64,000 nt of DNA from an uncultured Microthrixaceae bacterium (GCA_963806205.1 CAWDXF010000003.1:71760-135759); one strand, 5' to 3'. Counted from the stretch's first letter, positions 2,831 through 18,601 are shown. Program-made: numbers and translations. Notes: generated by a model not told the origin, from the sequence alone.

Positions 2831-3190
<360 letters not shown>

Positions 3191-9625: not shown

Positions 9626-9729
9626 GCGGCGTGACGCCTGGCACGGCGAGCGGGGGTTAGCCTCGGACTAGCCTCCGTGTGGGACGGGTCCCTCGTTCGA
9701 GGGCGCGTGACATCGCAGGGCGGAAAACG

Positions 9730-10722
9730 ATGGCGTATCCCGTGGTCGTAGTGAAGCAGTCGGGCCGACGTCCGCTGTACGTCGAGATCCGTGAGCAGGT
9801 GGAGATCGGCCGCGACTGCGACGGCATCCTCCTCACCGATCCGCAGTGCTCGCGACGCCACGCGATGCTGAGCCCGCGCGGCGAGTCCGTGGTCGTGGAG
9901 GACCTCGGGAGCACGAACGGCACGCTGTTCGACGGGAACCGGATCACCTCGGCCGTCGTGCTCATGGCCGGGTCCGTCGTCAACATCGGCGAGACCGTGC
10001 TCCAGCTCGCCACCGACCACGCGGCTCGCACGTCCGGCGGTGGGCTCCCAGGCGCCAACCTCACCGTCACGGGGGGCACCGACAGCCCGCTCGCCGCGGT
10101 CCGGGCCGTGCCCTCAGGGCCCCAGGACCTGCGCGAGACCTCGATGGAGTCGGTGGCCCGCGCGGTGAACAAGGCCCTTCCGTCGCTGCACGCGGTGCAA
10201 CAGGACCGCGGCACGATCACGATCGTGTTCAGCGACATCGAGTCGTCGACCGAGCGGGCCACCGCGATGGGCGACGCCGCCTGGATGAAGGTGCTCGCCG
10301 CGCACAACGACATCATCCAGCGGCACGTGGCCACCTGGGAGGGCAGCGTCGTCAAGAACCAGGGGGACGGCTTCATGCTCACCTTCGGCGGTGCCCGGCG
10401 GGCGCTGCGGGCGATGATCGAGGTGCAGCAGGAGCTGTCCGAGTCCGAGCTGGTCGGCGGGGTCCGCATCCGCGTCGGGGTGCACACCGGTGAGGTCATC
10501 TCGGAGGAGGGCGACATCTTCGGCAAGCACGTCATGCAGGCCGCCCGGGTCGGCGGGCAGGCCGAGGGCGGCGAGATCCTCGTGTCCTCGCTCGTGCGGG
10601 AGATCGCGTCGGCCCGCGGCGACCTCACGTTCGGCGAGCCCCGCACCGTGCAGCTGAAGGGCATCGAGGGCGACCACGTGGTCTACCCGGTGATCTGGGA
10701 GGACTTCACCGCCGAGGACTAG
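9730..10722 (+). CDS. FHA domain-class III adenylate/guanylate cyclase fusion protein
   Basis: N-terminal FHA (EIGRDCDGILLTDPQCSRRHAML...VEDLGSTNGTLFDG). C-terminal cyclase (TIVFSDIESSTERA...GDGFMLTFG...RIRVGVHTGEV). The start is ATG 9730 or GTG 9679. Confidence 0.85.
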   Translation: MAYPVVVVKQSGRRPLYVEIREQVEIGRDCDGILLTDPQCSRRHAMLSPRGESVVVEDLGSTNGTLFDGNRITSAVVLMAGSVVNIGETVLQLATDHAARTSGGGLPGANLTVTGGTDSPLAAVRAVPSGPQDLRETSMESVARAVNKALPSLHAVQQDRGTITIVFSDIESSTERATAMGDAAWMKVLAAHNDIIQRHVATWEGSVVKNQGDGFMLTFGGARRALRAMIEVQQELSESELVGGVRIRVGVHTGEVISEEGDIFGKHVMQAARVGGQAEGGEILVSSLVREIASARGDLTFGEPRTVQLKGIEGDHVVYPVIWEDFTAED

Positions 10723-11606
10723 TCGGTGAGGTTGCCCGACGGCGCCTGCGATCCCGACCGCTGGAGCTTCCGGAAGCTGGCGGAGTTCGCCGCGGTGTTG
10801 TACCCGGAGGAGCGCGCGACCGCGACCTGGGCGGCCACGTGGAGGGCCTCCTCGGCCTGCACGTCGCGGATGCTGCGCTGCAGCGGACCTGGTGCGATGT
10901 AGCCGAGCACGAACGCGATCATGGTCGGCAGGAACACGAGCGGCACCCACTGCTCGACGTCGGCGAACCCGATGCGCAGGATCGACACGCCGAGCGAGAG
11001 GGTCACGCCGATGGCGCCACCCGCCATGGCGAACTGGAGGCCGCGGATGAACCGGTTCGACGGCAGCCGCCGGCGGATCGTGTTGATGACGAGGACGATC
11101 ACGCTGAACGCGGCGAGCCCGAGGATGATGAAGGCGAACATGCCCAGGGTGGACGTGGTGTTGCCGAGCACGTCGACGACGAAGCCCTGCTCGGCGAGCA
11201 GGTGCCCGTCGCCGTCGTAGACCCGCAGTGACGTCCCGAGGTACCCCGTGGCCTGGCTCTCGAGGTCGAAGAAGTCGAGCTTGGTGTCGATCTCGGTCCG
11301 CTCCCCCGGATCGAGGCGGGCCTTCACCCCGAGGTCGTAGGTCAGGAACGTGAGCCCCAGGGCCTTGCCCTCGAGGCGCACGTACTGGATGTCCTCGGTC
11401 GTGGTCCCCTCGTTCCGGATCGTGAGGTGGACCGGGATGAGGATGTTGGGGTCGAGCGGCACCGGGTTCGAGCTGTCGGCGTCGGTGATGTCCTGCCCCC
11501 CGATGGTGCCCTCGACGGTGAGCCCGTCGTCGACGGCGGCGCCGGCGGAGGGGGCCAGGGTCACGGCGGCCAGGAGCGCCGCGAACACGAGCCCGACGAG
11601 CTTCAT
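10719..11606 (-). CDS. Secreted Ig-like domain protein with multi-TM C-terminal half (last gene of the SipW operon)
   Basis: Start ATG 11606 (MKLVGLVFAALLAAVTLAPSAGA signal) overlaps the upstream stop (TGATG). A beta-rich domain of about 150 aa is followed by about 4 TM helices. Confidence 0.7.
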   Translation of the reverse strand: MKLVGLVFAALLAAVTLAPSAGAAVDDGLTVEGTIGGQDITDADSSNPVPLDPNILIPVHLTIRNEGTTTEDIQYVRLEGKALGLTFLTYDLGVKARLDPGERTEIDTKLDFFDLESQATGYLGTSLRVYDGDGHLLAEQGFVVDVLGNTTSTLGMFAFIILGLAAFSVIVLVINTIRRRLPSNRFIRGLQFAMAGGAIGVTLSLGVSILRIGFADVEQWVPLVFLPTMIAFVLGYIAPGPLQRSIRDVQAEEALHVAAQVAVARSSGYNTAANSASFRKLQRSGSQAPSGNLTD

Positions 11607-12121
11607 CACTTCGTCCACCTCTGGCTCGCGGCCGATGGGAGCGGCGTCCGGAAGAGGACCACGGCGATGATGATCACGAGCACCATCGAGGTCGCCACCT
11701 GGCCCGTGCCACCCCCACCGCCGGCCACCGGATCCACGAGGTCCGGCTCGACCAGGAGCGGATCGAGCGTCATCGCCTGGGAGACACGAGTGGCGGTCAC
11801 GTCGCGGAGCCACATGCGCTCCGGCAGATAGAACCGCATCACCGGCGCGTTGTACGGCTGGGTGGCTTCCCACAGGACACGGTCCGAGGCACCGAGCACC
11901 TGCACGGTGAAGTCCTTGTCCGCCTCGAAGTCGCCGCTGACAATGACGGCCAGGACCGGCCAGTCGTGCTCGCTCTCGTCGTAGTCGCCGATGTCGAACG
12001 ACACCTTGACCGCTCGAGACTCGTCGCCCTGGGAACCGGCGTCCTGCGCGCTCGCGGGCTCGCCCCAGCCCGCGAGCAGGAGCAGCGCCAACCCCAGGAC
12101 GGTCACGAGGCGCGACCTCAT
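11606..12121 (-). CDS. Secreted protein with C-terminal TM anchor
   Basis: Start ATG 12121 (MRSRLVTVLGLALLLLAGWGEPASA) overlaps the upstream stop as ATGA. C-terminal GGGGG linker plus TM segment TSMVLVIIIAVVLF. Confidence 0.65.
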   Translation of the reverse strand: MRSRLVTVLGLALLLLAGWGEPASAQDAGSQGDESRAVKVSFDIGDYDESEHDWPVLAVIVSGDFEADKDFTVQVLGASDRVLWEATQPYNAPVMRFYLPERMWLRDVTATRVSQAMTLDPLLVEPDLVDPVAGGGGGTGQVATSMVLVIIIAVVLFRTPLPSAASQRWTK

Positions 12122-12807
12122 GGCGCGACGAGCTCCACGCGCGACGGGCGGAGGTTCCCCCAGCCGAAGGTGACCTGACCCAGCGTCCAGTTCTCGATCA
12201 GCTTGACCCGGAGCTGCTGGCCCGCCGGCACGATGAGGTTCTGCACGCCCATGTCGATGATGCGCTCGTCCCAGAAGAAGTTGAGCGTGCCCTGGACCTG
12301 GGTGCCGGAGGCCAGCAGCACACAGGGCGGCTTCGAGTGCGCTGGCGCGCTCGGTGCGCAGCTGAACAGCCCCGCGGTGATGGAGGTCAGCACCGGTCCG
12401 TTGAACCACATGCGAAGCCGGACCCGGCCGGCGATGTCCCACCCGCAGGACGGCGGGGACGGCGACACGGTCGTGCCGCGCCACAGGAGGAACTCCGACG
12501 GCGTGGTCTCGTTCACGAGGCCCTGGTTGGAGTCGTCCAGCTGCGCGGTGAAGTCCTGTCCCGATGGCGACTGGGTCGTCTGCAGCACCATGTTGTCGAA
12601 GCTGTTGTTGTTGTTGGCGGGGGTGATCAGGGCGCCGTGCAGGTAGAGCGGGAACGGCACCGGCGTCGGCTCGCACGGCGGCACGATCGACGACACGGGC
12701 GCCGAGTAGACGCCAAGGTCCTCGGTGTTCGCGGTGAACGTGCTCGCGAACACAGACGCGAGCCCGATGAGAGGGAACACCATCAGGACGAGGAGGGGGC
12801 GCCGCAT
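12118..12807 (-). CDS. TasA/camelysin-style secreted protein with SipW-type N-terminal signal
   Basis: 229-aa ORF beginning MRRPLLVLMVFPLIGLASVFASTFTANTEDLGVYSA. This shares F-A-x-T-F-x-x-N-T-E-D with the first gene of the operon and resembles the TFAxFxDxE SipW-cognate signal class. Confidence 0.7.
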   Translation of the reverse strand: MRRPLLVLMVFPLIGLASVFASTFTANTEDLGVYSAPVSSIVPPCEPTPVPFPLYLHGALITPANNNNSFDNMVLQTTQSPSGQDFTAQLDDSNQGLVNETTPSEFLLWRGTTVSPSPPSCGWDIAGRVRLRMWFNGPVLTSITAGLFSCAPSAPAHSKPPCVLLASGTQVQGTLNFFWDERIIDMGVQNLIVPAGQQLRVKLIENWTLGQVTFGWGNLRPSRVELVAP

Positions 12808-12813
12808 CAGGAG

Positions 12814-14533
12814 CTAGCCAGACGGGCGCTCGGGGCCGACTTCGGGCTGGGGAGGAGCCGCCGCCGGAGCGTCGGCCGGCGTTGCAGGTTCCGGAGCAGC
12901 GTCGACGGCGTTCCCCGCGTGCTCCGGAGCGGTCTCGTACTCGTAGGTCACCGCGCCGAGGAAGACCCGGTACCGGTGGCAGCCGTCGCCGAGGTCTTCG
13001 TGGAGGATGACCGACTGCTCGACCTTGGCCAAGCGGGCCAGCTCATCGATCCCACCCACCATGACCACCGGGCCGGGCGGGCCGGTGGCGCTGGACACGT
13101 CGACCAGCTGCGAGCGGTAGCGCGCCGCGATGCGGGCTGACTCGCCGAGGCCGACGCCACCGAAGAGCACCGACGCGAAGTAGGCACCGGCGGCAAGGAG
13201 CACGAGCACGATCCCGCCCATGCAGACCGCGGGCGGAGTCGATGCTCACGGACATCACGCCGAAGTCGTAGCTAGCGGCCTTCCGCACCTCGCGGACGAT
13301 GTCCCTGCTCCCGTCCGCATCGTTGGCCGGCTGGGCTTGGATGACACTCGCGTTGATGATGAAGGTGAAGTCCGGCGCCACGTCGTCCTGCACGGGGAGC
13401 GCCCCTGCGGTGCCCTGCACGGCGAGCTGCGGGCTGATCGTCACGGTGTAGTTGTCGCCGGCGACGCCGGTGAGCTCCGTGAACTCCGCGACCCGGGCCG
13501 CGACGTCCCGGAGGTTGATCGTGACGACCTGCGTCGCCGTCCCCTCGAAAGAGGTCGCGTCGAGGTGGTAGAGCGGCGCGGACCACCCCTCGGCCATCTC
13601 GACCGTGGCGTCCACGCGGTACTCGCTCGCGAGCCCGTCGACACCGTCGCCTGCGGCATGGAAGGTCATCGCAAGGTCCACGTTGTCGAGCAACCGGGTG
13701 TAGAGCGGCTCGGCCGGGACCTGGATGCCGGCTCCGTCGTCCCGCGTGCCGACGACGCCTGTGGGGTACACGCGCGAGGGCGCGCCTGTGAACCGGTAGT
13801 CGACGTCGATGCCGAAGTCGAGTGCGCCGATCCGTTGCGCCTCGGTGGTGGTGTCGGCGGCCCGGATCGTCGACCACGTGGTGAGGAGGACCGGCAGCGC
13901 GAGGGCGATCGTGATCGCGAGGCCCACCGCGGCCCACCTCGGCTCCGTGTGGCGAAGCCAGCGGGGAGGCGACGACGTCGGTCGAGGCCGAGGAGCGACC
14001 GGGTCGCTGGATCCGGGGGCGACGGGCGGCAGGCTCATCGGCCGCCGCCGCCGACGTCGTCGGGTGCTCCCGCCCACGACCACTGCGGCGCCCCCGAGCG
14101 CGGCCAACACCTCGGGCTGCCCGGCACGGGCCGCCCACCCGCCGAGCTTCGGGACATGGAACACCGCGCGGCCGATGACGTCCTCACTCGTCGGCGCCCA
14201 CGGGTCGGCGCCATCCCGGTTGTCCCCCTTCGTGACGAAGACACCGTCCGGGGTGATCTCGACGATGCGATGGATGATCCGGGTCGGGTCGTCGAACTCG
14301 CCGCCGGCCCGGAAGGCGATGATGTCACCCTTCGCATAGTGCTCCTCCTCCCGGATGACCACCAGGTCGCCGTCGTGGTAGGTGGGCTGCATGCTCGGCC
14401 CCTGCACCACCACGTAGGACTCCCGCCCGCCGAGGGCGGTCGGGCGCAACCAGGCGAACCAGCTCAGGACCAAGACCGCGCTGACCGTCAGGGTCGACAG
14501 GCGCCGGAGCCGCGAGCCTCGCTTCCCGATCAT
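12814..14533 (-). pseudogene. Archaeal-type signal peptidase I (SipW-like, S26B) fused to a long TM-flanked extracytoplasmic module; apparent frame break near 13225
   Basis: ORF 13043..14533 has a TM, then GPSMQPTYHDGDLVV (catalytic Ser box), IIHRIV (His box) and KGDNRDG. A second TM and a domain of about 230 aa follow. After ...VMSVSIDSA the frame turns into Arg-rich nonsense. ORF 12814..13221 starts exactly there with TM GGIVLVLLAAGAYFASVLFGG plus a 110-aa tail. Confidence 0.75.
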
Positions 14534-14590
14534 GGTCGTGTGGGTGGCGGCGCCGAGGAGGCGCCGCCACCCACAACTCCGAACGAGCGG

Positions 14591-15052
14591 CTACGCGACG
14601 TCGAGGCCGTCGATCAGGACCGCGGTGTGCGTCGGATCCTTCGACCCCAGACCGGCCATGCGCCGTCGCAGCTGGGCAGCTCACCCCGTTGGCACCGGCG
14701 GTGCCCGGCACGAACGCGAAGTTGGCCGGGGTGGCGGCGCGAGAGTGGTCGTGCACGTGCGGCGTCGCCACCGGCTTCTATGCTCGATCTCCAGGGTCAG
14801 CGTGAGGCCCGCACACGGTGCCGTGGCGGCCGCCCTTGGTGAAGGCGACGTTGATCGTGGGTGATCGGCCAGTCGTTCGCTCGGCGGGTCGTAGGTCGCG
14901 TTGGTCCACGTGATGCCGACCGTGTCGACACACTTGGCGACCGGGTCCTGACCCGACGAGACGTCCTCGGTGTTGAGTGCGAACGTCGCCGCGAACGCAC
15001 CGATGACGAACAGGACCAAGGCCACCGCACTAGCGATGATCACCTTCCGCAT
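14591..15052 (-). pseudogene. TasA/camelysin-style secreted protein, first gene of the operon, interrupted by about 3 frame changes
   Basis: ATG 15052 has GGAGG 6 nt upstream. The N-terminus is MRKVIIASAVALVLFVIGAFAATFALNTEDVSSG. Sensible peptide continues in other frames: TINVAFTKGGRHGTVC; LTLTLEIE; HVHDHSRAATPANFAFVPGTAGANGV; LGSKDPTHTAVLIDGLDVA-stop at 14591. Confidence 0.6.
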
Positions 15053-15255
15053 TGCCTGCCTCCTATGCGTGCGGTGCTCCCCCTAGGAGGCACCTTGTTG
15101 TGGAGACAAGGCCGGATTTCGTCCCACCCCGCGGGCAACGTGCCCTGACACATCCCGAGATTCGATCCGCCCTTGCCCGCACGGCACGCCGGATGGCGAG
15201 CCGCTCGTTAGCCCGAAGTTAGCACGCGATCACGCGTGGAGCCGTGTGGCGGCAG

Positions 15256-17556
15256 TCACTGGGGGCCCGAAGGCGGAGAAGCCGGAGGAATGCTCCCCGT
15301 CGTCACACCCAGTGTCTTCTCGGCCCGCTTCACGGCCTGCCGCACACGGCGGCGGCGGGCGACGCCCACCCGGGCCTGGACGGCCGGGAGGCCGGCGGCG
15401 GCACAGAGGATGGCGACCACGATGACGGTCAGCAGGGAGGGTTCGCTGGCCCCGATGGCCCCGGCCAGGAGGACGAAGCTCAGGCCGAGCAGCGGGCCCG
15501 CCAGGAAGGCGCCGACGTAGGACAGCCGGCGGGTGCGGCCCGAACGGAGCGGCTTGAGGGCGGACTCGAGGTTGGCGTAGCCGAGCAGGAGGAGCATCAG
15601 GCCACCCATGAAGGGCGCCGTGAGGTACCAGGTCTGGGTGGCCTTCACCCGCACGTCGCCTTCGCGGAGCACCGCGTTGCCGCGCCGCACGACCACGTGG
15701 GCCGTGGCCTTCCCGCCGACGAGGCGCTGGGAGATGCCGGGGTCGATGACCGCCTCGCCGTCGCGCACCGGCGCGGACGCGCTCGACACCTCGACCCCGA
15801 GGTACTCGAACCCGAGCTCCACCTCGTCGGCTCGGGCCGCCAACGACCGGTCGTTGATGCGCACCTCGACCTCGTTCGACAGGTCGATGCCGAAGCGCTT
15901 CGTGGTGGCCAGGTCGTGGCCCGAGATCTCGACGTCGTCCGGCTCGAGGCCGCGCTCGCGCGGTGCTCCCGTGATGCCGAGGAGCGCGACGACAGCGGCC
16001 ACGAACAGGAGCCCGGCCGTCCACACGATGGCCGGCCACGGAGGCTTCGGCGGATCGAGGACGTCCTCGACACCGATCAGATCGGCCATCTCGAGATCGT
16101 AGAGGTCGGCACCCTCGATGCGCGGCTCCGCGCCGCCGGCGCGCACGACCTGGAACTGCATGTCTCCACCCGGCAGCACGGGCGCGACCACGGGGGGTGA
16201 CGTGGCGGGCGCGCTCGGCGCCGCCGCCCATCCCGCGCTGGTCGCGGGCGCGGGGGCTCCGCCGGCCGGCGCCACGCCGCGGTGCTGCGTCTCCTTCGCC
16301 TCCGGCGAAGCCGGCGCACGGCTCCCCGACACCGTCGTCTCGTTCGCACCCGGCACCGCCGGCGCACGACTGCCCGAGACGGTGGTCTCGTTCGCGCCAG
16401 GTACGGCCCACCCGGTCGGGCCGGTGGTGATCGTCTCCCCCGCCCGCGGGCCGCCGCCCGTCGTGATCGTCTCGTTCGATCGCGGGGTGCCGCCCGTCGT
16501 CGTCATCGGGCTGCCGCCCGACGTGGTGCGGATCGGCGCGAACGACCCGGAGGTCGTGCGCGCGCCGGTGGTCCGCGCGGCCCGCGAGAGCCGCTCCGAA
16601 CCGAAGATGGCCACGCCCGAGTGGTCGAGCCACGGCGGGCCCCACGAGTCGACGCACGCCTCCCCGATGGCCACCCCGAGGTCCTCGGCCCGCTGGTAGC
16701 GGGTGTCGACGTCGCGCGAGAGCGCCGCCATGACGACCTCGACCAGCGGGGCCGGCACGTGGGGGGCGGCCTGGCTGAGCGGCACCGGATCCTCCGCCAG
16801 CCGCTGCGCCAGGAGCTCGCTGGCCGACTGGGCCCCGAGCCACGGCAGCTGGCCGGACAACAGCTCGTACAGCATCACGCCGGACGCGTAGACGTCCGAC
16901 GCCGGCGTGAGCTCGTCGCCGCGCGCCTGCTCCGGCGACATGTAGGCGGGGGTGCCCAGCACCTGGCCGTCCACCGTGCCGAGCGTGCGGTCGCCGGTGA
17001 TCACCCGGGCGATGCCGAAGTCGGTGACCTTGACGGCCGACTCGGCATCGAACATGAGGTTGTCGGGCTTGACGTCGAGGTGGAGCACGCTCTTCTGGTG
17101 GGCGTACTGCAGGGCCGCGCAGCAGGCCATCACCACGGCGCAGGCCGTCGGCGGCGTGAGCCCGTCGGAGGTGAAGCGGTCCCACACCGAGCCGCCGGGG
17201 AGCGCCTCCATCACGATCAGGCACAGCCCGTCGCGCTCCACGTAGTCGAAGATCGGCACGATGTGCGGGTGCGACAGGCCGGCCAGGGTCTGCGCCTCGT
17301 TGGAGAAGCGCTCGCGCACGTCGGGGTCCACCGCGAAGGCGGGCGGCAGCTCCTTGATCGCCACCCGACGGTCGAGCCGGCGGTGCCGGCCCAGGTAGAC
17401 GACGCCCATCCCGCCTCGGCCCAGCTCGCGCTCGACCTCGTACTCGGGGATCGCGTCGGCGATCCGGTCGACCTCGGGACTCACCGTGGTCGCCGGGGTC
17501 ATGTGCGCGTCCGCCCGATCGCCATGTCCCGCTCCCTTGCTCTCCTTCGCCAGCAT
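15256..17556 (-). CDS. Ser/Thr protein kinase with T/G-rich repeat linker and C-terminal multi-TM sensor-like region
   Basis: In-frame ATG 17556 within ORF 15256..17853. Hanks motifs are GRGGMGVVY, AIK, HLDVKPDN, DFG and GTPAYMSPE. The C-terminal half has one TM, a domain of about 130 aa, then about 3 more TM helices. Confidence 0.9.
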   Translation of the reverse strand: MLAKESKGAGHGDRADAHMTPATTVSPEVDRIADAIPEYEVERELGRGGMGVVYLGRHRRLDRRVAIKELPPAFAVDPDVRERFSNEAQTLAGLSHPHIVPIFDYVERDGLCLIVMEALPGGSVWDRFTSDGLTPPTACAVVMACCAALQYAHQKSVLHLDVKPDNLMFDAESAVKVTDFGIARVITGDRTLGTVDGQVLGTPAYMSPEQARGDELTPASDVYASGVMLYELLSGQLPWLGAQSASELLAQRLAEDPVPLSQAAPHVPAPLVEVVMAALSRDVDTRYQRAEDLGVAIGEACVDSWGPPWLDHSGVAIFGSERLSRAARTTGARTTSGSFAPIRTTSGGSPMTTTGGTPRSNETITTGGGPRAGETITTGPTGWAVPGANETTVSGSRAPAVPGANETTVSGSRAPASPEAKETQHRGVAPAGGAPAPATSAGWAAAPSAPATSPPVVAPVLPGGDMQFQVVRAGGAEPRIEGADLYDLEMADLIGVEDVLDPPKPPWPAIVWTAGLLFVAAVVALLGITGAPRERGLEPDDVEISGHDLATTKRFGIDLSNEVEVRINDRSLAARADEVELGFEYLGVEVSSASAPVRDGEAVIDPGISQRLVGGKATAHVVVRRGNAVLREGDVRVKATQTWYLTAPFMGGLMLLLLGYANLESALKPLRSGRTRRLSYVGAFLAGPLLGLSFVLLAGAIGASEPSLLTVIVVAILCAAAGLPAVQARVGVARRRRVRQAVKRAEKTLGVTTGSIPPASPPSGPQ
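16314..16409 (-). repeat. Two tandem 48-nt units inside the kinase linker
   Basis: They encode GANETTVSGSRAPAVP / GANETTVSGSRAPASP. More diverged ETITTG units lie adjacent. Confidence 0.6.
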
Positions 17557-17573: not shown

Positions 17574-18601
17574 CTAGGTGACCTCGATCGAGCCGACCAT
17601 CTGGCTCGGGGCGTGCAGGATGCACACGTAGGCGTAGGTGCCGGCATCGGGGACCGTGAACGAGTAGGTGCGGGCCGTGAGGGGCGGACCGGCGCCAGGG
17701 GCGCGTTCGGGGGCAGCAGGCCCGTGTTGAAGAAGCCGACCGACGACAGCGCCTGCGGCGACGGTCCGGGGGCCGGTGGACCGACCCGCGGGTCGGTCGG
17801 GTTCTGGATCTGCTCCGCCCCGGTGCCGAAGAAGCTGGCCGTGTGCGGAGCACCCGACTCGTTCACGAAGGTGACGGTGTCACCAGCCTTCACGTTCGCC
17901 GGGGTCGGGGCGAAGGCGAGGATGCTGGCGTGCTCGGTCGTGACGCCCATCTGGATCGTCCACGTCTTGGAGCCGTCCGAGTTGTCCGTGACCTCCGGAT
18001 CGGCGTCGACAAGCTCGGCTTTGGCGGCTCGGCCCTCCTCCAGCCACTCGGTCTGCTCGTCGACCCGGCGCTCGGCCACGTCCTGGGGCGAGTCGGCGTC
18101 ATCGCCGGCTGCCACCACCGTGACCTCACCGATCATGTCGGGGTGGATGACGCAGTTGTAGGTGAACGACCCTGGGGCCGCGAACGTCAGCTCGAGCGGG
18201 GTCGGCTGGACCGGGCCGAGCGGCTGGAGGCCCGAGTTCACGAGCGTGGTCCCGTCGACCGGCCCGGTGGGCGGGGTCGGCGCGAACAGCGAGTCGTCCT
18301 CCTCGGGGTTCGGGATCTCCTGACCCGGCGCGAGGAAGGTCACCGAGTGCGGCTCCGCGCCGGTCCACTCCCAGGTGATCGGCGTGCCCACCTCGACGGT
18401 GACCTCGGCCGGGAGGAACTCCAGCACGGCGACGGTGGGGTCGTCCGGATCGTTCATCCCGGCGCCGACCACGATGCCGTCGGGTGCCTCGACGGTCGGC
18501 TCGTCCGACGTGGCGTCGTCGTCGTCGCCACAGCCCGCTCCCACCAGCAGCACCGCTGCCAGCGGCAGGGCCAGCCGGCGGAGCATCTTCGATCGGTACA
18601 T
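17574..18601 (-). pseudogene. Two-domain cupredoxin (plastocyanin-like) lipoprotein, one frame break near 17700
   Basis: ATG 18601 has GGAGG upstream. Lipobox is LLVGAGC-G. Domain 1 has PHSV...YNCVIHPDM. Domain 2 has APHTASF, then after a 1-nt frame change ...TYAYVCILHAPSQMVGSIEVT-stop (TAG 17574..17576). It lies 17 nt upstream of the kinase start. Confidence 0.8.

Follow-up and report, generated by a model that had tools for sequence, protein, structure and literature searches.

A conserved locus of Acidimicrobiia pairing a SipW-type signal peptidase fused to DUF5305 with two secreted partner proteins: a possible surface-fiber system

In the tapA-sipW-tasA operon of Bacillus subtilis, the gene of a dedicated signal peptidase of the S26B class lies between those of two secreted substrates, which have a conserved leader and N-terminal segment in common; in TasA, the N-terminus serves for strand complementation. 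In haloarchaea, the Tafi cluster (tafA-G) includes the signal peptidase TafD, needed for subunit processing and fiber formation, together with the linked DUF5305 protein TafG, several subunits (TafA, TafC and TafE), a putative adhesin or tip protein, and membrane proteins; the study of this cluster also noted fusions of peptidase and DUF5305 in bacteria. A 2026 preprint on AbpX sets out a common grammar for the loci of TasA-superfamily donor-strand fibers, in which major and minor subunits, a tip and a type I signal peptidase (SPase I) occur together with an accessory DUF5305 protein, in some cases as a fusion, with an anchor in the membrane or wall, and with second-messenger enzymes or kinases. 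The combination of SPase I and DUF5305 has already been tied to fibers of this kind (literature of 2025-26), and DUF5305 has been likened to the accessory subunits of the signal peptidase complex. Here we describe a related locus in a stretch of 64,000 nt (hereafter the window; G+C content 70-76%) from an uncultured Microthrixaceae bacterium (GCA_963806205.1, CAWDXF010000003.1:71760-135759), where five coding regions on the minus strand, g1 to g5, occupy positions 10719 to 15052.

This locus matches the published AbpX/TasA-superfamily grammar part for part, and for that reason we consider it probable, if only narrowly so, that it encodes a surface fiber matured by its own peptidase, with g1 as the major subunit, g3 as a minor or tip subunit, g4 as the anchor and g5 as a platform, controlled by a kinase, an FHA-cyclase and the 5' leader of g1. 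An initial annotation of the same DNA had recognized five linked genes, but had overlooked the DUF5305 half of g2, the frameshifts, and the flanking kinase and FHA-cyclase genes. It had also regarded such systems as uncharacterized in this lineage; indeed, no literature linking Acidimicrobiia and SipW was found, although the locus class itself (SPase I, DUF5305, fiber subunits and anchor) had already been described.

The known systems differ from the window locus in distinct ways. AbpX/AbpA loci, reported from archaea, Bacillota and Chloroflexota, have the same grammar and include SPase-DUF5305 fusions in Anaerolinea, Actinoplanes and Tepidiforma; however, their anchors are of the SLH or LPXTG/sortase type and their regulators are histidine kinases and cyclic di-GMP enzymes, whereas here the corresponding parts are a stalk protein anchored by a transmembrane (TM) helix, a polytopic membrane protein, a Ser/Thr kinase and an FHA class III cyclase, and the subunit families are different and unannotated. 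Tafi is archaeal and mostly Tat-dependent, encodes its peptidase and DUF5305 as separate genes, employs subunits unrelated in sequence, and has an Lrp-like regulator instead of kinase and cyclase. The Bacillus operon, for its part, has no DUF5305 and encodes Peptidase_M73 jelly-roll subunits of about 230 aa, to which g1 and g3 have no detectable homology; as the initial annotation stated, it has no counterpart of g4 and g5, and it also lacks the kinase and the cyclase.

The center of the locus is g2 (12814..14533, minus strand), which combines an N-terminal signal peptidase of about 135 aa, an Arg-rich cytoplasmic linker and a DUF5305 module. The peptidase scores 69.6 bits on the S26B (archaeal and endoplasmic reticulum (ER)-type) model TIGR02228, whose cut-off is 51.85, and 27.8 on the LepB-type model TIGR02227, whose cut-off is 47, in agreement with its original assignment to S26B rather than to ordinary LepB-type enzymes. 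The boxes GPSMQPT, IIHRIV and KGDNRDG are present as first quoted; they are of the Ser/His type (SM.P, HR, GDN..D) and not of the Ser/Lys type of LepB, and residues S47, M48, H88, R89, G103, D104, N105 and D110 are invariant in 11 sequences. Its closest solved relatives are human SEC11C and SEC11A (E-values of 1.4e-11 to 1.4e-9), with bacterial LepB-type SPase I at 0.009. On the equivalog model of Bacillus SipW (NF046067) it fails, reaching 36.3 bits against a cut-off of 190; by these profile comparisons, the g2 peptidase is of the SipW type, yet is no orthologue of B. subtilis SipW. The likeness to the eukaryotic signal peptidase complex, of which SEC11A/C is the closest solved catalytic relative (E 1e-11), covers the Ser/His chemistry as well as the association of a catalytic subunit with accessory subunits in the membrane, parts of which lie on the lumenal and cytosolic sides. 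That complex, however, is a general ER enzyme and not dedicated to particular substrates, and its accessory subunits, as far as compared, are not homologous to DUF5305.

Profile matches of orthologues and hydropathy point to a DUF5305 module in the C-terminal 350 aa of g2, which would consist, from N- to C-terminus, of a TM helix, an extracellular beta domain, a second TM helix and a cytoplasmic domain. Hydrophobic segments at residues 201-219 and about 438-456 flank a stretch of about 215 aa and are followed by a conserved tail of about 90 aa, a layout that agrees with the published DUF5305 architecture, in which the cytoplasmic domain is of the alpha/beta type. Two orthologues pass the PF17231 cut-off of 29 bits (P0016 with 33.4 and P0027 with 32.7), and two others fall just below it (P0002 with 28.3 and P0009 with 27.8).

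As had been reported, the minus strand carries all five of the coding regions, but only g3, g4 and g5 are intact open reading frames (ORFs); g1 and g2 are interrupted in this assembly, as discussed below. The first of them, g1 (14591..15052), encodes a small secreted protein with a predicted beta-sandwich, the proposed major subunit; g3 (12118..12807) encodes a secreted protein of 229 aa with a g1-type leader and N-terminal motif, the proposed minor or tip subunit; g4 (11606..12121), the proposed membrane anchor, encodes 171 aa with a signal peptide, a beta domain, a stalk and a C-terminal TM helix; and g5 (10719..11606) encodes 295 aa with a signal peptide, an ectodomain of about 125 aa, three predicted TM helices and a cytoplasmic tail. 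The tight junctions initially described are exact, with a gap of 6 nt between g2 and g3 (12808-12813), an ATGA that joins the stop of g3 to the start of g4 (12118-12121), and a TGATG that does the same for g4 and g5 (11604-11608). The coupled block, however, comprises g2 to g5 and not all five genes: the interval between g1 and g2 (14534-14590) does measure 57 nt, but it is not a coupling gap, as it contains a strong GC-rich hairpin that had gone unnoticed and that sets g1 apart.

This hairpin (14540..14574, minus strand), situated between the g1 stop and the peptidase start, is a candidate attenuator, terminator or mRNA stabilizer. It has a perfect 15-bp stem and a 5-nt loop (RNAfold pairs 16), with a dG of -44.5 kcal/mol and a z-score of -5.19, none of 200 shuffled sequences being as stable. 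Hairpins of different sequence occur at the same place in four related loci (L001, L002, L003 and L007), while no strong hairpin follows g1 in the locus of Salinilacustrithrix flava. In addition, g1 is preceded by a strong GGAGG Shine-Dalgarno sequence, the only strong one of the cluster.

The proposal that these genes are co-conserved is borne out, since their order recurs in about 10 independent Acidimicrobiia contigs, far beyond chance. The arrangement kinase, g1, peptidase-DUF5305, g3, g4, g5, FHA-cyclase was found without exception in the related Acidimicrobiia contigs that are long enough to show it, and the junctions (6-nt gap and 4-nt overlaps) are identical in the three contigs with gene calls for g2 to g5 (L001, L003 and L004). 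Carriers comprise metagenome-assembled genomes (MAGs) labelled Microthrixaceae and Acidimicrobiaceae, as well as the complete genome of the cultured S. flava EGI L10123 (CP133888, locus at about 3,781,700-3,788,800). A minimal core, formed by a g1-like gene, an S26B peptidase and a g3-like gene, is present in distant Acidimicrobiia (L015 and L016), in Demequina and in other Actinomycetes loci; here, the hidden Markov model (HMM) of g1 detects the small upstream protein with E-values of 1e-11 to 3e-15 (scaled to one million sequences). A different partner was seen in a Dehalococcoidia MAG (L018, 2871-5864), where a secreted protein of 997 aa with Ig-like and GH2_C5-like domains, whose leader ends in AFAADLDLKSAKVTVF, precedes an S26B peptidase; the dedicated-peptidase arrangement thus serves very large substrates too, in Chloroflexota.

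The two secreted proteins are linked by their N-termini. The post-signal motifs FAATFALNTEDVSSG and FASTFTANTEDLGVYSA, to which attention had initially been drawn, are both present, and the motif common to g1 and g3 is conserved in homologues. In the main clade, the end of the leader and the early mature segment, (G/S)AFAA[STN]F.V..ED[VI].S[GF], are nearly invariant; in other lineages the motif differs, yet it matches in both substrates of each locus, with AASFxVxxED in the main clade being replaced by AAALxVxGGxLQ in L015 and L016 and by AAQLxV in Demequina-type loci. Unlike g1 and g3, g4 and g5 carry ordinary AxA signal peptides. The rest of the two mature proteins varies extensively: between L008 and L009, whose peptidases are 88% identical, identity reaches 78% (g1) and 92% (g3) over the first 40 residues and 29-33% over the remainder, and among genomes with peptidases at that level of identity the N-terminal 40 aa of g1 and g3 range from 78 to 100%. 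The same is seen at the nucleotide level when the three near-identical loci L008, L009 and L030 are compared from -180 to +900 of the g1 ATG. The leader and the first ~58 nt are 90-97% identical, and identity then falls to ~45-57% for what remains of g1, across the spacer and for ~100 nt into the peptidase gene; this low-identity stretch, from +58 to about +600, has sharp edges, beyond which identity returns to 92-97%. Read from these alignments, the sharply bounded hypervariability of g1 indicates cassette replacement.

An exhaustive profile search among 1.84 billion proteins recovered 190 representative clusters of the g1 family; among the matches listed (150 of the 190), lengths span 71-195 aa and none is multidomain. 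AlphaFold2 (AF2) models a g1 homologue as a sandwich core of seven strands, with pLDDT around 80, and leaves the conserved N-terminal segment disordered. The mature part of g3 is hypervariable and predicted to resemble a jelly roll, although a pair of Cys residues and a strand motif at the C-terminus are conserved; its low-confidence model, again with a disordered N-terminal segment, retrieved the C-terminal jelly roll of CocE (7.6e-6) and TNF-type jelly rolls in Foldseek, within a range of 8e-6 to 1e-3. In both proteins, the most conserved portion of the mature chain is also the portion that the monomer models leave disordered, namely the N-terminal 15-20 residues. A word-indexed homologue search with g3 returned only the query itself, and a concatenated g1+g3 profile gathered 4 g3 and 11 g1 relatives; since so few g3 relatives were recovered, the structure predictions are built on shallow alignments. 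One locus (L002 9656-10057, equivalent to L010) has in the g3 slot a protein of 133 aa that carries a typical g3 leader (…AFAAGFSVQTEDVASF…) and continues with some 12 copies of CCEYD/CCEYDG in tandem; this low-complexity sequence, rich in Cys, Glu, Tyr and Asp, is possibly metal-binding. A system of the type IV pilin kind was also considered and set aside, as the g1 and g3 leaders have no G-1/E+5 prepilin motif and the conserved neighborhood holds no gene for an assembly ATPase, a PilC-like protein or a prepilin peptidase.

The two membrane partners are described here from sequence and hydropathy, which support the original view of g4 as a signal-peptide protein with a C-terminal TM anchor. 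Its beta domain of ~100 aa is followed by a Gly-rich stalk, which in relatives extends to as many as 80 Pro/Thr-rich residues, and its TM helix by an invariant cytoplasmic tail, FR(T/A/S)PLP...RW, with conserved Thr/Ser residues (RTPLPSAxTQRW). The ectodomain and TM bundle ascribed to g5 are likewise present, but Kyte-Doolittle analysis predicts three TM helices after the signal peptide, and not about four. This protein is the most conserved of the five (57-79% identity) and has an invariant RRRLPxNRF loop in its TM region. Paralogy of g5 with the C-terminal sensor of the kinase was rejected (BLASTP E > 1, hhalign probability 2.8%); for paralogy of g4 with g1 there is only a weak local match of 29 columns between the beta domain of g4 and g1, limited to the first strands (hhalign P = 0.002, probability 13%).

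Genes with signaling domains flank the cluster on both sides. Upstream of g1 and on the same strand, the 15256..17502 region encodes a Ser/Thr protein kinase of uncertain start codon whose C-terminal part is a membrane/extracellular sensor region; its translation shows kinase motifs, positional homologues carry Pfam Pkinase, and the C-terminal region, 45-71% identical, is found upstream of g1 in 8 distinct loci. On the other side, a plus-strand gene (9679..10722) convergent with g5 encodes an FHA domain (Pfam FHA, 1.3e-14) together with a class III adenylate/guanylate cyclase (Guanylate_cyc, 3.2e-15), and adjoins the cluster in all 10 of the related loci that extend far enough, with 59-76% identity. 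The stop codons of g5 and of the cyclase gene overlap by 4 nt (10719-10722), which leaves no room for a terminator between them. Beside the FHA-cyclase of L002 (12637-14905) lie genes for an MFS transporter fused to a domain that binds cyclic nucleoside monophosphates (cNMP) and for a separate cNMP-binding protein, neighbors that would be compatible with a cyclic-nucleotide output of the cyclase.

Between the kinase gene and g1 lies a conserved non-coding 5' leader of ~75-85 nt (15105..15178, minus strand). It aligns in 12 loci (the window, L001, L002, L003, L007-L009, L011, L013 and L028-L030), always with a g1 gene downstream; a metagenome pattern scan found it in three loci. Its consensus is GGGCAAGGG.GCATCGATCC.CCGGACGTGAYTGGTCGCGTTGTCCGGG.GGAGCCAGAGCGAACCCGACCTTGTC, and RNAalifold predicts nested stems with two compensatory pairs (AU:6/GC:5 and CG:6/UA:2). 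With no Rfam match at E <= 10, the element is a candidate operator or cis-regulatory RNA of a new kind. In the window as a whole, Rfam detects a single family above threshold, the class A bacterial RNase P RNA at 2833-3189 of the plus strand (206 bits).

Put together, these parts suggest the following scheme for the favored fiber reading. The g1 and g3 products would be exported by Sec, and their family-specific leader would then be cut by the dedicated peptidase with its fused DUF5305, most plausibly at AFA|A or TFA|L. The freed N-terminal segment, A-[STN]-F-x-V-x-x-E-D-V-x-S-G, would serve as an assembly element, most likely as a donor strand inserted into a neighboring subunit. The abundant major subunit would be g1, a role that fits the strong Shine-Dalgarno sequence of the gene and the hairpin that follows it, as well as the small size and hypervariable surface of the protein, whereas g3, which joins this N-terminal element to a larger domain of jelly-roll-like type, would be a minor or tip subunit. 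The stalk and C-terminal TM helix of g4 could tether the fiber to the membrane through the wall, and g5 may act as a polytopic membrane platform. The kinase, the FHA-cyclase and the 5' leader probably control expression through phospho-Thr and cyclic-nucleotide signaling, as their synteny suggests.

A number of observations weigh against this scheme. Fiber formation, polymerization and cleavage of the cluster proteins are predictions, and the roles of g4 and g5 are assigned from architecture alone. The near-invariance of the hydrophobic leader of g1 and g3 is unusual for a cleaved signal peptide. The g1 sandwich, predicted with seven strands, has no obvious missing strand, and Foldseek relates its model to generic Ig/FN3 sandwiches alone, at E > 0.05, while the g3 model has a low-confidence pLDDT of 58.6. 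Neither g1 nor g3 has a Pfam or NCBIfam match (nor do g4 and g5), and profile searches with both, as with g5, against Protein Data Bank (PDB) sequences yielded nothing meaningful; in particular, the Peptidase_M73 (PF12389) family of TasA gave no Pfam match to either at E <= 1, and hhalign against a TasA sequence verified with PDB 8AUR returned probabilities of 0.08% for the g3 profile and 0.14% for that of g1. The reconstructed g2 of the window itself reaches only 12.4 bits on DUF5305 (PF17231; E 0.11, cut-off 29), in a match that spans profile positions 19-217 and crosses the frameshift. Finally, a consensus scan found neither a sigma-70-type promoter nor a T-tailed terminator.

Some of these points are shared by the alternative that fares best, namely that the products stay monomeric. 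The peptidase would then mature two hypervariable surface proteins, such as adhesins, kin- or strain-recognition tags, or ligands, and g4, g5, the kinase and the FHA-cyclase would jointly form a surface-sensing signaling module. Such a reading would account for a g1 model that is already a complete seven-strand sandwich and for the lack of similarity to known fiber subunits; proteins of recognition and adhesion, too, typically have hypervariable cassettes between conserved flanks, and the kinase and FHA-cyclase are linked to the locus as tightly as the structural genes, with the cyclase among the most conserved genes. We nevertheless regard it as unlikely, if worth serious attention, because the pairing of SPase I with DUF5305 has so far been reported for fiber loci, the best-conserved mature part of the substrates is an N-terminal segment outside the predicted fold, g4 resembles a stalked anchor, and g1, with its strong Shine-Dalgarno sequence and the hairpin behind it, looks like a subunit produced in stoichiometric excess.

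It is less likely still that g1 and g3 genuinely belong, as very divergent members, to the TasA/camelysin superfamily and that the system is an orthologous extension of tapA-sipW-tasA. The initial annotation had labelled both proteins 'TasA/camelysin-style' on the strength of a short motif resemblance, and that resemblance, between TFAxxxED and the GGGT[FW]AxFxDxE leader of TasA and CalY, is apparent when the sequences are read directly; furthermore, g3 is predicted to be a jelly-roll-type sandwich, and superfamily branches such as Tafi were joined to the rest only through deep HHpred profiles. The label, however, did not survive any of the membership tests that were run. Beyond the Peptidase_M73 search and the hhalign probabilities of about 0.1% given above, the SipW-cognate signal models TIGR04088 and TIGR04089/90 had no match at E <= 10 in N-termini or full-length homologues, and no TasA-superfamily structure (TasA, AbpA or TafE) appeared among the top 50 Foldseek hits of the g1 and g3 models; g1 is also half the size of TasA, and the peptidase reaches 36 of the 190 bits that mark a SipW equivalog. 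The system thus plausibly works like those of the TasA type, but g1 and g3 are not assignable as TasA or camelysin proteins.

The weakest alternative concerns the disruption of g1 and g2, each of which had been described as a single open frame. The supposed g1 frame from 15052 to 14591 ends at an in-frame TGA (14681-14683) after 123 aa; the periodicity of G+C at third codon positions (GC3) is lost after about 14870, and at least three frame switches occur between about 14890 and 14810. A family HMM of 129 sequences, used in place of frameshift-aware alignments to single homologues, which gave inconsistent breakpoints and were dropped, places the conserved blocks successively in frame A (residues 1-55), B (NDWPIT), C (TINVAF) and again A (APCAGLTLTLEIE), with the conserved C-terminal AVL(I/V)DG also in frame A and ending at the TAG at 14591-14593. 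In g2, the coding sequence is divided into two pieces in different frames (13043..14533, 496 aa, and 12814..13221, 135 aa), and the coding signal swaps frame at about 13225 in the GC3 frame plot. The joined protein has 85 relatives, mostly of 535-575 aa, that cover 90-98% of it, and aligns with them end to end over the junction (...ARGL-LGG(L/I)VLVLL...); the break, a +1 frameshift, comes down to one extra A at 13221 (ctgcAtgggc, within ggtctgcAtgggcggg), whose deletion restores G-L-L-G-G-I. The same A creates an ATG at 13219-13221, exactly where the piece with DUF5305 TM4 and the cytoplasmic domain begins, and if the indel were real the downstream piece could be read as a separate ORF of 135 aa, without a preceding Shine-Dalgarno sequence.

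Such damage is not confined to the cluster. A cupredoxin gene on the minus strand shifts frame near 17690, its canonical C-terminus YAYVCILHAPSQMVGSIEVT lying in another frame, and two plus-strand ABC-transporter genes at 25.3-28.8 kb show at least 8 frame hops and at least 10 fragments, which keep their Walker A, signature and Walker B motifs intact. Across the 64 kb, Viterbi decoding of GC3 flagged about 19 candidate frame switches with no stop close by, all between 13 and 42 kb and none at 42-64 kb. Related contigs with Flye-style contig_N names belong to the MFD long-read MAG set, and one contig so named, L013, has the same frame damage throughout the cluster. Because other genes of the window are also frameshifted, the breaks in g1 and g2 are probably assembly errors and not decay. 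We judge it very improbable that the cluster is decaying here, with real mutations and a non-functional system, for although g1 has at least three frame switches, the peptidase gene has one, and the extra A at 13221 lies outside any homopolymer and supplies an ATG to the downstream piece, unrelated genes and the whole cluster of L013 are damaged alike, catalytic motifs are intact on every fragment, the correct frames have no premature stops or radical substitutions, and GC3 remains at 0.9-1.0 in the shifted frames. More generally, dense frameshift errors in long-read MAG contigs can mimic pseudogenes.

The locus class has already been recognized; new here are the subunit families, g4 and g5, the way in which the regulators are paired, hypervariability in the manner of cassettes, and the conserved leader of g1. 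A wider proposal can be made only tentatively, and in our estimate is doubtful as a whole: that g1-type proteins represent an unannotated family of dedicated-peptidase fibers across Actinomycetota, unrelated to TasA in sequence, whose major-subunit gene is a hypervariable cassette swapped by recombination and controlled by a new structured 5' leader RNA and by Ser/Thr-kinase, FHA and cyclic-nucleotide signaling, with g4 and g5 as a new kind of membrane anchor and assembly platform for Gram-positive pili that are independent of both sortase and type IV machinery.

Soils, sludge and oceans harbor abundant Acidimicrobiia, of whose cell surfaces, to our knowledge, almost nothing is known. If the proposed fibers exist, they would represent a third pilus or fiber route in Actinomycetota, beside sortase and Tad pili. 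The SPase I and DUF5305 fiber paradigm would then reach a new phylum, in which the subunit families are new as well, and would gain a pair of new, conserved membrane components and a regulatory link through kinase and FHA-cyclase. S. flava EGI L10123, which is cultured and has a complete genome and public RNA-seq data (SRR25905596), makes the system directly testable. The hypervariable cassettes of g1 and g3, in turn, are the sign of a surface structure that is strongly pressed to diversify, with phage, predation and kin recognition as examples of what may drive this.

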